Assembly (NCBI GenBank): GCA_951406725.2
Contig: OX597824.1
Coordinates: 91,636,001-91,700,000, forward strand
Direction: 5' to 3'
DNA: 64,000 bases
From: Octopus vulgaris
Lineage: Eukaryota
The notes under the pieces were generated by a model, which saw nothing but the letters and a program-made list of their open reading frames with translations, had not been told where the DNA came from and ran no database searches. Of the stretch, positions 15,928 through 48,090 are shown in pieces. Every line of letters starts with the position of its first letter. Position 1 is the first letter of the stretch. Position numbers and translations under genes: made by a program.

Positions 15928-16106
15928 AGATCGTTAGCCACTACACACATTTTTTTCTCTCCTTGTTTTTTCTGTATCCCTTTCAGTAGAAGAGCGTAGG
16001 CTCGAAATGTAAAAGACTTTTTCTATTCCTGAGCGTTATACAAATACATCTGTTTGTTTTCTACACTACCTGTTTTGGTCTTTTGTTTTTTTTCGTAAAC
16101 TCTCCT
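15928..16106 (+). mobile_element. Hammerhead-bearing short element (family HA)
   Basis: gatcg.tagccactacac...cttt-CAGTAGA-A-GAGC-gtag-GCTC-GAAA-TG-TA-aaag (15980-16015)...ctacactacctg..ctcc-(TA)n. Confidence 0.8.
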
Positions 16107-16182
16107 TATATATATATATATACACATTGGTACACCAATATATATATATATATATATATATATATATATATATATATATATA

Positions 16183-16345
16183 TACAAAATTTAAGGACTG
16201 ACCACTAAAAAAATGGACAGCCTATATGCTAGATATAGACGTCAAAATCGCCATTTTCCACGAAGAATGTGATTGGCGATCTTGACGTCTATATCTAGCA
16301 TATAGGCAATCCATTTTTTTAGTGGTCAGTCCTCTAAATTTTGTA
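16183..16345. repeat. Fold-back (inverted repeat) element, ~70-bp arms, ~20-nt spacer
   Basis: tacaaaattt.aggactgaccactaaaaaaatgga..gcctatatgctagatatagacgtcaa.atcgcca and its reverse complement. A partial relative lies at 5671-5712. Confidence 0.9.
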
Positions 16346-16354
16346 TGTAAAGAA

Positions 16355-16487
16355 TCCACTCACAAGGCTTTGGTCGGCCCGAGGCTATAGTAGAAGACAC
16401 TTGCCCAAGGTGCCACATAGTGGGACTGAACCCGGAACCATGTGGTTGGTAAGCAAGCTTTTTACCACACAGCCACTCCGACGCCTA
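16355..16487 (-). mobile_element. SINE family A head
   Basis: Near-identical reverse complement of 32058-32190. Confidence 0.9.
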
Positions 16488-17741
16488 TGGTAGGATAATA
16501 TCTTATGTTTCAGTAGGTCATGCTTGGGGATCCAGCTGGAAAGGGTAATGACGGTTCATTGTGGAATGACCCTATGGAGAAAATGCCAGAGGAATCTACC
16601 ACTACTAGCTTCCCATGAATAATGGTCGGAGAAAATAGGTCGAAGGGATAATGGATGAAATTACCTGTCATTTACATAATTTTACTGACAGCTGTAAGGT
16701 CATAAATATCTGAAAATCTTTATGAAAAGTTTGACAATATGTTGATGAATGTTCTGCTAATTTATTCCTGAAAATAATTACTTGCGTAATGCTTTAAAAA
16801 CAGGCAAACTATATTTATATTTTTATTGCTATAGTAAATATGTATGTACAAATATATATGTATGTATATATATGTATTTATATATATATATATATATATA
16901 TATATATATATATATATATATATATATATATATACATACATATTTACTATAGCATAATATATATATATATATATATATATATATATATATATATATGTAT
17001 ATATATATATATATATATATATATATATATATATATATATATATATATATATATGTATGTATATATATGTATATATATATATATATATGTAATTATGTAA
17101 AATCGTAGTTATTTTAATTATTTTAATTAAAGAGTAATAATTTGTGTCTAATCTATTACTTATTTTTGTAATTTGAGAAAATATATTTTAATAGGAGCAT
17201 TTATCAATTAACTCATATCCGAAAGTTAATCAAGTGAAAATATTTCTCATTCGAATGAGTTTCTGAGTTTCTCATATTTATATATACTGCGTTTACACAC
17301 ACACACATATGCACATACAAACATACAAACATACATACATATATATGTGTGTGTGTGTGTGTGTGTGTGTGTTTATATTTATATATATATATATATATAT
17401 TATCTTTTACTTGTTCCAATAATTGGAAGATTTTAATCGAACGTACCAATACCAATATCAATCATGAACCGCACCAGCACCAGTTGTCAAGCAGTGATGG
17501 GGAGAAACACACACACACACACACACACACACACACACACACACACACACACACACACATAAAACGAGCTTCTTTCAATTTCCGTCTATCAAATCAACTC
17601 ACAAGGCACTCGTCGGCCCGAGGCTATAGTAGAAGACACCTGCCCAAGGTGCCACGCAGTGGGGCTGGACCCGGAACCATGTGGTTGGGAAGGAAGCTTT
17701 TTACCACAAAGCTACCCCTACCCCATATATATATATATGTA

Positions 17742-17797
17742 TTCTACTGAAGAGGAAAATTCCATGGGATTAATCCCGAAATAGATTCAATATAGAA
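17742..17797 (+). ncRNA. Type I hammerhead ribozyme motif
   Basis: ttcta-CTGAAGA-gg...cc-GAAA-tagattcaa-TA-tagaa: 5-bp stem I, canonical core, near-palindromic stem III. Begins just after (TA)n. Confidence 0.6.
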
Positions 17798-44069: not shown

Positions 44070-44585
44070 TACTACCATCACCACCACCACCACAACTGCT
44101 GCTGCTACTACTACTACTACTACTACTACTACTATTACCACCACCACCATCATCACTACGACGACGACGACCACCACCACCACCATTACCACCACCACTA
44201 CTACTACTACCACCAGCACCACCAGCACCACCACCAGCATCACCACCACCACCACCACCACCACTACTACTACAACTACTACTACTACTACTACTACTAC
44301 TATCACCACCACCACCATCACCACAACGACCACCACCACCACCACCACCACTACCACCACCACTACTACTACTACTACTACTACCACCACCAGCACCACC
44401 ACCACCACCAGCACAACCACCACCAGCACCACCACCAGCACCACCACCACCAACCACCACCACCACCACCACCACCACCACCACCACCACCACCACCACC
44501 ACCACCACCACCACCACCACCACTATTTACTACTACTACTACTACTACCACTACTACTACTACTACTACTACTACTACTACTACT
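44070..44585. repeat. (CAC)n/(CTA)n compound microsatellite
   Basis: Directly visible. Confidence 0.95.
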
Positions 44586-45809
44586 AAGTATTATCTTCAT
44601 ATCGTCCAGGTACCTAACAAACCAGTCACCGTATTCTAATATTCACGCGTATCTTTATCAAAAATGTTTTGCTCTTAAAAATTTAATAATGCAGTAAAAA
44701 TTCTTCGCAGTAATTTCCATGCAATGCGTTGTCATTTTTCTGTAATTTCGTTTTAACATAATTTTCTTTTTTTTTTAAATTATCATTTCACTTGCGAAAA
44801 TTGTCTTATAGAGAACTTATCAGAAACTTTTGTTAAAAAAAAAATGACAATATTTCTTGTTAAAAACTATTTTAGTTTCATACTACGATGTATTAAATGA
44901 TAAGATATTAAAAACTTGTGTAAAAATATCTGAAATTACGAAATAGAAGTGAAAAAATTGCGTAACAAAAAAGGAGAGATACACGTGATTTCTGAAGACA
45001 GATATAATAAAAAAATATATAGATTTGTAGAAAATATTAATATTTACAATGGAATATGAAAATTTGTATGCCGACTACTAACTACAGACATTTGGATACT
45101 CGATTTATATCTACATGTAGACTAGTAATCCCCATTCATGTATGCATACGAGTATATATAAATGGATATCTATCTATCTATCTATCTATCTATCTATCTA
45201 TCTATCTATCTATCTATCTATCTATCTATCTATCTATCTATCTATCTATCTATCTATCCATCTATATATCTGTATCTGGTGGACGCGTCTGAAAGGATTG
45301 GAGACAAACGCTTTCCTCTCTGGTCAATCTCTCATCAACTTCTTCAAGTACCACTTTAAAAGGAAAGTGAGAGTAGAGAGGCAAGTTTTGTCTAGCGAAT
45401 GTTTTAAAAAATGATGGGTGAATGTAGCAAGGATGGCACGTATGAATGACGAAGCCACCTTGAGCATAATCCTATGAAACCGGAAATTTAAAACAGAGGG
45501 TTACCTACTTGCAAACAAATGTGGTAACATATAACAATATTGACCGAGGTTACCGTGGTCTTTTCCGCAGGCTTTTCTTCCCACGGATAAACCTTATCTA
45601 TCTATCTATCTATCTATCTATCTATCTATCTATCTATCTATCTATCTATCTATCTATCTATCTATCTATCTATCTATCTTTCTGTCTATCTATCTGTCTG
45701 TCTGTCTTTTATTTATTTACATATCAATGTATGCGTAACCACACACACGTACACACACTTTCTCTCGCTTTCACACACACACACAAACACACACACATAC
45801 GTGGAGGCG

Positions 45810-46040
45810 GAAGGGGAGGAATTATTTCCTGAAAAGTTCCAAGGAGTGGGAAAGTTCCGATGAGGGGCGGTGGAATTACATCCTGGAAAGTTCCGAGGCG
45901 TGGGATGAATACTCCCTGGAAAGTTCCGATGAAGAACGGTGGAATTACATCCTGGAAAGTTCCGAGGCGTGGGATGAATACTCCCTGGAAAGTTCCGATG
46001 AGGGGCGGTGGAATTACTTTCTGGAAAGTTCCGAGGAGGG
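45810..46040. repeat. Minisatellite of alternating 36/33-bp units, each carrying GGAAAGTTCC
   Basis: GGAAAGTTCC at 45849, 45885, 45918, 45954, 45987 and 46023. Confidence 0.92.
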
Positions 46041-46469
46041 AGAGGAAGGGAAGAAATTACTTATCTTCAAAGCCTAGTAGTAGTATCGTCGCGGAAAATT
46101 GACTTATCTCCACCAGACCACATTCTGCTGGCCAGGGCCATCGTCTGTTGCCCTTCTGCTGTTTCGCGGCAATTGCAAAATACCCGGATCAGAGTCACCC
46201 GAATCAGATTTCGGCAAAGACTCAGAGCCAGAATCACCATCAGATGAGTCAAAATCCTCTGGAAAGTCTGAGCCCCAATCAACAGGACCCCCTCGATTCA
46301 GCTGCAGCAGCAGCTGACGTTCGAGCAGAGGATGTGGGTGTGGACTGACGCGAAGCAGCGGACGTACTCGGACGCGACCGCAAATTTGCGGAAGGAGTAT
46401 CACCGGCCTCCGCAGCAGCTGCAGCGACACCGGAAGTACCAGGTCGCGCGGCTCAGTTTCACGTGTATG

Positions 46470-47070
46470 TGATGATGATAGTGATGATGATGATGATGAT
46501 GATGATGATGACGATGATGATGATGATGATGACGACGACGACGATGATGAAGATGATGATGGTCATGATGATGATGATAATGATGGTGATGTTGATGATG
46601 ATGATGATGATGGTGATGACCATGATATGATGACGACGACGACGATGACGATGATGATGATGGTGATGATGATGATGATGGTGATGATGATGATGATGAT
46701 GATGATGATGATGATGATGGTGATGACGACGACGATGATGCTGAAGATGATGATGGTGATGATGATGTTGATGGTGATGTTGTTGATGATGATGATGATG
46801 ATGATGGTGACGACGATGATGATGATAATGATGGTGATGATGATTGGTTATGATGATGATGATGGTGACGATGATGATGATGATGATGATGATGACGATG
46901 ATGGTGGTGATAAGGATGATGATGATGATGATGATGGTGATGACGATGATGATGATGATGGTGATGACGATGATGATGATGATGATGATGATGATGACGA
47001 TGATGATGATGTTGATGTTGATGATGATGATGATGATGATGATGGTGATGATAATGATGATGAAGATGAT
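46470..47070. repeat. (GAT)n microsatellite
   Basis: Directly visible. Confidence 0.95.
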
Positions 47071-47887
47071 AGAAAATCCAAGCCTAACCGCCTAACTAAA
47101 CACACAAGTGATAAATGAGAAACTGAAGCATCGCCTTCGCTGGTAATTGCAACGTTTCCAAGGAACACAGATTTATGAAAAATACAAACGCAAACAGAAG
47201 GCGAAGAAGGCGAAGAAGAAGAAGACGGAGAAAGATTGCTGTTACTAATGGCAACTTTACCGGTAATAATCACGAATTTGACTGCTACAATTAGCCGCCA
47301 AATCTCCTTCAAAATTTATCCTACTGTCTTAAAAATGAAAGGATTCCAGCTAAATTAGAGCTCTGAAGAAACACACACACACACACACACACACAACTAT
47401 GAATGTATCAGGGCGTATGGCCCAGTTGTTAGGGTGCTACGCTCATGACCTAGCGGTCGTGATTTCGATTCCTAGACTAGGTGGGGGGGGGGGGGGTTGC
47501 GTTGTGTTCTTGAGCAAAACACTTCATCTCGCGTTGCTGTATGACGATTTCGAAAACCTGACGAGTGGCACACATTGCATTCGTTTGGACAACGTCGATT
47601 TGGTGGAGAGAGTAAGGTAATGTGCGGCACGAACAATTTGACCTCTTTAAACAAATCCATCCACAAGACCTTAGGTGGCCCGAGGCTATTGTAGAAGACA
47701 CATGCCCAAGGTGTCATAGAGTAGAACTACCTACCACAAACTGCTTACCACACAGCCACGCCTACACACACACACATATATATTCCCCCTATGTATAATA
47801 TATATATATAATGGTATATATATATATATATATATATATACATATAATATATAAAATAAATATGTAATATATATAATATATATAATA

Positions 47888-48090
47888 GTTGGAATTTACA
47901 AAAAAAATACAAAAGACTAAGATAGGTGTATAAATAACAAACAAGTTTATTAGTTTAACGTTCAGGAAGGTGAGAAAGTCTTTTACATTTCGAGCCTACG
48001 CTCTTCAACAGAAAGGAACGCGAGAAAATAAACAGAGAGAGAGAGAGAGAGAGAGAGAGAGAATAAAAAATGTGACTACCAGTCGATCAT
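47888..48090 (-). mobile_element. Hammerhead-bearing short element (family HA)
   Basis: Minus strand cttt-CTGTTGA-A-GAGC-gtag-GCTC-GAAA-TG-TA-aaag (47980-48015); TA-rich flanks. Confidence 0.82.

Follow-up and report, generated by a model that had tools for sequence, protein, structure and literature searches.

A 64,000-nucleotide (nt) stretch of the Octopus vulgaris genome (assembly GCA_951406725.2, contig OX597824.1, positions 91,636,001 to 91,700,000 of the forward strand; hereafter the window, to which all coordinates refer) harbors a family of six short dispersed repeats, here called HA, which carry all or part of a motif that, judging by its layout, very likely descends from a hammerhead ribozyme. 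Position 6 of the core, normally A, is U in every copy that retains the core, and this U was inherited from the source element. The reading that we favor, with moderate confidence, is that HA arose from the pseudo-long terminal repeat (pLTR) of a canonical Penelope-like element (PLE) as a non-autonomous retroposon; its ribozyme would be weakened or dead, although the fold may have been retained. The connection to a Penelope open reading frame (ORF) is presumptive, and the state of the core bases makes a crippled ribozyme appear more likely than a working one.

Copies and layout of the hammerhead motif

HA comprises six copies of ~100-200 bp, found by BLAST and by nhmmer, the latter with an HA profile that returned exactly six copies (E-values of 2e-51 to 4e-28; next match, 1.3). 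All six positions of the original prediction were thereby recovered, no seventh being found; the copy at 10637, counted there as complete, proved to be truncated as well, since its sequence begins only at the core and the 5' arm of stem I is missing. Pairwise identities range from 65 to 88%. On a tree of the copies, with terminal branches of 0.05-0.12, copies 15928 and 18945 pair together (88% identity, same strand, 3017 bp apart), as do copies 10637 and 12510. The latter two are not independent because they have a further 92 nt of 3' sequence in common at 92% identity, separated from the element by only a short (TA)n; this extension may have been duplicated locally or have come along as a tail from one source. 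Three copies begin at a common point and the three others are shortened to different points, while the 3' end falls at one common point in all six and is followed by TA repeats, as had been anticipated. No inverted copy is present in the window, and none of the six is tandem or circularly permuted there according to BLAST and nhmmer.

An inverted repeat (15749-15925/19218-19394; 177 nt at 84%, with a unique core of ~137 nt at 89%, and only two copies in the window) flanks the sister copies 15928 and 18945, which stand within it as direct repeats with an identity similar to that of the flanking arms. A palindromic element of ~165 nt (16185-16350), reminiscent by eye of a miniature inverted-repeat transposable element, is inserted in the (TA)n tail of copy 15928.

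The motif has the layout of a minimal hammerhead, namely a 4-bp stem I, seven core bases (starting at 15984, 19010 and 33250, and on the minus strand at 48011 and 10738), an unpaired extra A (9a), a stem II of 4 bp with G10.1-C11.1 as its closing pair, GAAA, a 2-nt palindrome corresponding to stem III, and UH. No change is seen in stem II or GAAA in any of the five copies where both are complete, as originally predicted, and copy 12510 retains the 3' half. GAAA and U16.1 are invariant in all six copies, and H17 is A or U (T in one of six). The unpaired base between positions 9 and 10.1, the G10.1-C11.1 pair and stem II occur in 5/5 copies, and stem I has 4 bp in each of the four copies having both arms. 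The palindromic segment 15.1-16.1 reads ACGT in four copies and ATGT in the two with T at 15.2; such a palindrome would permit dimers, the ACGU duplex being predicted at -3.7 to -4.1 kcal/mol.

The unpaired 9a, G10.1-C11.1, a short stem I and a palindromic 15.2-16.2 are features of the minimal hammerheads of metazoan PLEs, and solo pLTR-derived motifs make up most of the minimal hammerheads of animal genomes (PMC4209133). HA resembles these ribozymes in 9a, G10.1-C11.1, a 4-bp stem II with a tetraloop, a 2-nt palindromic stem III, a short stem I, a U-rich 5' flank and the prevalence of solo dispersed copies, and differs from PLE pLTR hammerheads in having no linked ORF in the window. Stems II and III of the Acropora digitifera Neptune element are nearly the same as those of HA (PMC4209133, Fig. 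S3). With its 4-bp stem I, its 9a and its U6, HA does not conform to the canonical type I hammerhead, which has a 6-bp stem I and an intact core.

A 22-nt HA motif gave five matches in the window versus none in 100 window shuffles. A hammerhead descriptor, written after the HA motif had been seen but modelled on the published minimal-hammerhead consensus, was run on copy 18945 after dinucleotide shuffling: with at most one core mismatch it was reached in none of 40,000 shuffles, and with at most two in one of 40,000; in 40 block-shuffled windows the mean was 0. On the real window it matched four of the HA copies and, at 34051 on the minus strand, an unrelated site present only once, which has a U3/A8 core and may be a chance match. 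The layout match and the shuffle tests thus support the hammerhead ancestry and the minimal, Penelope-type layout put forward originally. That the resemblance is fortuitous is very improbable given these tests and the close Acropora analogue (PMC4209133), notwithstanding several indifferent results: Rfam gave no match for two single HA copies at E-values up to 10, no hammerhead stood among the 150 of 480 Rfam matches listed for the whole window, no covariation is seen, and folding z-scores are unremarkable (+0.4 to -1.4). In the predicted folds of five copies, the hammerhead was never the lowest-energy structure, lying 1.9-10.5 kcal/mol above the best fold with a stem I probability of at most 0.04. 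An alternative register with a TTGAAGA core three bases downstream was rejected, since stems I and II are unpaired in it. Another hairpin, in which bases 4-7 form the loop, is present in the folds predicted for copies 47888 and 33205; it is broken by copy 15928 and is not supported.

Position 6 and the conservation of the core

Position 6 is T in all five core-bearing copies, as reported originally, and an ancestral U6 is reconstructed on the tree with a posterior of 0.9999. The source element therefore had U, and the change was fixed before these copies diverged. The proposal that U6 is a family trait and not decay holds in the sense that U6 was inherited from the source; as an argument for a working non-canonical core it is not supported, because a damaging change in the source also passes to all copies and a common U6 is therefore not evidence of function. 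The consensus CTGTNGA is correct as a majority reading but is present in only one of five copies. This copy, 47888, is the only one whose sole core departure is U6; the four others carry a second change in the CUGA turn, and none has a CUGANGA core. Changes at C3-U4-G5 amount to 4 in 15 cells, compared with 0/51 for the rest of the core when position 6 is left out (p=0.002), and these catalytic bases are the most variable portion of the motif.

Counted by column, the motif holds 12 changes in 195 cells versus 129 in 723 for the rest of HA, which includes slippage-prone tracts; counts on the tree use instead the adjacent, well-aligned 3' segment. There, the whole motif is changed at 11/195 and the adjacent segment at 22/228 (p=0.15), positions that are free in hammerheads at 6/46, and structure-constrained positions outside C3-N7 at 1/129 (p=0.0005 against the adjacent segment), with the split at N7/G8 chosen after seeing the data. 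The stretch G8-A15.1 has 1/106 changed, with a scan-corrected p=0.0015 for the best 19 columns. The original prediction was to be abandoned if the consensus were inactive as monomer and dimer and the motif no better conserved than the rest of the element; on conservation the outcome is mixed, since the motif as a whole is not significantly better conserved, whereas the stems and G8-A15.1 do exceed the adjacent segment. Preservation is thus apparent for stem I, stem II and the tandem-GA bases but not for the CUGA turn, a pattern which with six copies could have arisen by chance.

Copies outside the window were sought through spurious ORFs in protein collections, in two reading frames (A and B). 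Frame A gave one unrelated match among 616 candidates, and frame B gave 3 matches, 2 of 300 candidates and 6 of 6864, for ten distinct proteins in total. Four were judged to be HA copies (P0003, P0004, P0005 and P0008); P0006 and P0011, once decoded, were dismissed as no better than chance, and P0002, P0007, P0009 and P0010, large unrelated domain proteins, were left undecoded. P0003 and P0004 require U or C at position 6, the core of P0003 being damaged at position 5 and that of P0004 compatible with intact U4-G5. For P0008, position 6 must be C and position 8 must be A, so that its core is damaged at both. P0005 at face value requires A or G at 6, a reading made ambiguous by the fact that a 1-nt loss at 6/7 in a window copy exactly reproduces its next four residues. 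A clear A6 is found in none of the four. Two scans of bacterial and archaeal genomes gave no match.

In the published minimal hammerheads, A6 stands in all 56 rows of Fig. S3 of PMC4209133 (extracted text, inspected by eye), with core variants only at positions 3 and 8, in contrast to the U6 of HA. The open full-text literature searched contained no natural A6U hammerhead family and no match to the HA motif itself; the family may already be deposited as an unclassified repeat. A natural A6C was found, in phage Bcep176 (PMC3088659, PMC7151607). It resembles HA in its pyrimidine at position 6; it is however a C in a single phage motif that was assayed and is weak in Mg and better in Mn, whereas HA has a U in a repeat family known from sequence.

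Origin, mobilization and competing explanations

We propose that the source element carried a minimal type I hammerhead, as the layout indicates, and that its lineage fixed A6->U before the known HA copies diverged, which would have weakened or abolished self-cleavage. Reverse transcription of uncut transcripts into (TA)n would then have continued, always starting at one 3' point ~70-100 nt beyond the cleavage site, in line with the anatomy that the copies display. The common 3' end and staggered 5' ends of HA would result from this process, presumably carried out by a PLE enzyme acting in trans; that this partner was of Neptune type is pure conjecture. In the six copies, C3-N7 drifted whereas stem I, stem II and the G8/A9/G12-A14 module remained near-invariant, a pattern that might be explained by a continuing role of the fold in recognition.

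Several lines of evidence are consistent with this scenario. The cleavage site is spanned by all six copies, with H17 at 68-97 nt from the TA tail, and no copy starts or stops at that site; together with the fixed 3' end at (TA)n and the staggered 5' ends, this points to copying from uncut RNA. In an Anolis PLE studied in vitro, catalytic hammerhead mutants leave insertion unreduced and unprocessed RNA is the main template (PMC11167929). Published work on altered cores agrees with a weakened ribozyme: single and double mutants of the CUGA turn were low in pairwise mutagenesis and unrescued except by a C3/G8 swap (PMC9901934), A6C lowers the rate of one ribozyme from 0.3 to 3.6e-6 per min at 0.3 mM Mg (PMC7151607), and schistosome repeat copies carrying core changes are inactive (PMC8490949). 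PLEs are abundant and partly recent in O. vulgaris according to PMC13282606, the main text of which does not mention ribozymes, and they insert preferentially into (TA)n, the octopus Naiads included (PMC8557442). The 5' truncation, fixed 3' end and (TA)n target of HA fit, without being specific to PLEs. Tandem or inverted partial copies and a tail of 30-40 nt are further traits of PLEs; the corresponding observations in HA are the lack of an inverted copy in the window and the 92-nt extension of two copies. Naiads with 'HHR_core' or 'HHR_half_core' annotations, such as Naiad_Ovul of Octopus, have the (TA)n target in common with HA and likewise amplified without a canonical hammerhead, but they keep CUGANGA and lose the stems whereas HA keeps the stems and loses A6 (PMC8557442). 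Naiads illustrate that a PLE can multiply with a hammerhead that is degraded or missing. A look for exact HA words in the supplement of that paper gave none, although line breaks there could hide a match.

The absence of coding capacity in HA stated in the original prediction agrees with Pfam scans: no retroelement family was detected among the longest 150 of 320 filtered ORFs of the window (at least 60 aa), which gave three unrelated sub-threshold families and a zinc finger, or in any of the 102 shorter ORFs near HA copies. No PLE ORF linked to HA was thus found among the ORFs scanned in the window, and the mobilizing partner is unproven. An arrangement of copies 15928 and 18945 as two pLTRs around a 3-kb ORF was rejected for this locus; the sequence between them is made up of SINE-like repeats, microsatellites and a palindromic element and gave no hit to Pfam.

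A number of observations weigh against our interpretation. No ORF for reverse transcriptase or GIY-YIG endonuclease was found linked to any HA copy within the window, and all nine pairs of the motif are invariant in the six copies, leaving no covariation to support the fold. The core-bearing copies number only five and are not all independent, one of the four C3-U4-G5 changes lies at a truncation junction, and the excess at C3-U4-G5 over the adjacent segment (4/15 versus 22/228) falls short of significance (p=0.06). Once inserted, genomic copies decay irrespective of the activity of their source, and the strong conservation of G8-A15.1 and of both stems would also be expected from selection on an active ribozyme. 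Poor folding of the monomer is also normal for active minimal hammerheads (PMC4209133), PLE hammerheads can be assisted by protein, which that of the Anolis PLE needed to cleave (PMC11167929), and the natural A6C of Bcep176 does cleave, at 0.05 per min at 3 mM Mg and 0.3 per min in Mn (PMC7151607). It is quite conceivable, though on balance doubtful, that the hammerhead was kept under selection in source lineages despite U6. Selection could have acted on an active, remodelled CUGU turn, with protein-assisted or Mn-favored cleavage, which we consider unlikely, or, just as improbably, on a catalytically dead stem II/tandem-GA module used by a Penelope protein in template recognition.

Were U6 a working variant, the source RNA would dimerize by its ACGU palindrome and cleave itself, perhaps at a low rate, with the help of a protein or with a different metal preference, and the C3-G5 changes would reflect decay after insertion. 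The presence of U6 in every core-bearing copy, the constraint outside C3-N7 contrasting with the changes at free positions, the confinement of the H17 change to H, the cleavage by natural A6C, improved in Mn (PMC3088659, PMC7151607), and the compatibility of P0004 with intact U4-G5 and a pyrimidine at 6 are all in keeping with this explanation. It nevertheless appears unlikely, in view of the second CUGA-turn change in four of five copies, the low and unrescued activity of CUGA-turn mutants (PMC9901934), and the lack in the window of a tandem partner for a dimer and of any copy stopping at the cleavage site. Moreover, two of the four outside copies have a damaged core (P0003 and P0008) and the most plausible reading of another is that 1 nt was lost at 6/7.

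Efficient cleavage would be required of a non-LTR retrozyme, whose monomers would come from tandem arrays elsewhere in the genome, be circularized and reinserted. Retrozymes, like HA, are short, non-coding, hammerhead-bearing and related to PLEs (PMC7229834; 10.64898/2026.07.22.740005), the size of HA is compatible, and solo monomers are common in retrozyme families (10.64898/2026.07.22.740005). Animal retrozymes, however, have canonical, active type I hammerheads in tandem units of 220-400 nt and form circular RNA, the minimal type going with PLEs (PMC7229834), whereas HA is solo, minimal and 5'-truncated. The absence of tandem copies in the window argues against this origin, and the 'retrozyme-like' label of the original prediction thus finds no support there; we regard it as quite improbable. 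A SINE-like element moved by a non-PLE LINE such as Dong-R4 or RTE, in which the hammerhead would be a captured fossil without present role and the conservation of the motif due to chance or to a protein or DNA motif, finds some support in the generic nature of a fixed 3' end and staggered 5' ends in target-primed reverse transcription. R4/Dong- and RTE-like 3' fragments can be recognized by eye in the window, both groups are reported active in octopus (PMC13282606), and no PLE ORF stood among the ORFs scanned. HA has however no sequence in common with those LINE fragments in self-BLAST clusters, and its motif possesses the PLE-specific extras of 9a and a palindromic stem III, which leaves such an origin rather unlikely. 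Derivation from a PLE pLTR remains the explanation to which we give most weight.

Window context and the role of Penelope hammerheads

The window (Table 1) contains no N, has a GC content of 22-43% and consists of simple repeat for ~32%, with many short interspersed families. One such family, F4 (~500 nt), is pyrimidine-rich, ends in (TA)n and has an invariant CTGA.GA motif. HA copy 33205 and one F4 copy lie tail-to-tail in the same TA tract, suggesting a common target. In a two-copy repeat (1437-1543 and 2095-2203, plus strand) with a TA-rich end, GAAA precedes CTGA(C/T)GAAGGG by ~30 nt, an order loosely resembling the 'half-core' arrangement of the Naiad_Obim 3' end. Another TA-ended family (11040-11310 and 61886-62144) has the first half-core of a hammerhead, with a canonical CTGATGA at ~62030 on the minus strand, but neither stem II nor GAAA nearby; its copy at 62 kb is an internal inverted repeat.

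By eye, 60126-60578 (minus strand) resembles the 3' part, or restriction-like endonuclease end, of an R4/Dong-type LINE, without Pfam hit, and related pieces lie at 14483, 25894, 26876, 30785 and 36018. A 151-aa frame at 59406-59861 (plus strand) has C2H2-like motifs, weak zinc-finger Pfam hits and a likeness to the C-terminus of RTE-type LINEs. A LINE-like stretch compared with plasmids gave no match. No tRNA gene was found in the window, and its U6 small nuclear RNA (snRNA) copy is probably a processed pseudogene or a chimera.

Table 1. Coordinates of HA copies, hammerhead layouts and other features of the window
Feature	Position	Strand	Remarks
HA copy, full length	15928..16108	+	preceded by (TATG)n, (TA)n at end
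HA copy, full length	18945..19128	+	preceded by (GA)n, (TA)n at end
HA copy 33205, 5'-shortened	33200..33348	+	24-nt internal deletion
HA copy, full length	47888..48088	-	(TC)n expansion within pyrimidine tract
HA copy, truncated at core	10637..10738	-	5' arm of stem I absent; core TTGTTGA
HA copy, truncated within loop II	12510..12617	-	
Minimal hammerhead layout	15980..16015	+	core CAGTAGA (U4->A, U6); 15.2 = T
Minimal hammerhead layout	19006..19041	+	core CCGTAGA (U4->C, U6)
Minimal hammerhead layout	33246..33281	+	core CTATGGA (G5->A, U6); H17 = T
Minimal hammerhead layout	47980..48015	-	core CTGTTGA; 15.2 = T
3' extension common to copies 10637 and 12510	10541..10632	-	92% over 92 nt with 12415-12506
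Second copy of the common 3' extension	12415..12506	-	
F4 copies	11490-11982, 19936-20155, 33365-33849, 40384-40779		
U6 snRNA copy with 5' deletion	31405-31499	-	87 bits versus gathering 44; adjoins SINE-like repeat
GC-rich 69-bp tandem repeat	45849-46040		2.7 copies, 93%

Why PLEs have hammerheads is not settled: these ribozymes act slowly, not all clades possess them, and insertion in vitro can proceed without cleavage. With six copies in 64 kb, HA spread with a non-canonical base at position 6 and thereby constitutes a natural test of the role of these ribozymes. Descriptor searches that require CUGANGA miss families such as HA. If the motif is simply dead, HA is an ordinary fossil repeat and the lesson is a modest one, namely that a mutation common to all copies is not evidence of function. 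If, on the other hand, U6 is active or a dead fold is under selection, the structural and catalytic roles of PLE hammerheads would be separated in a natural family.

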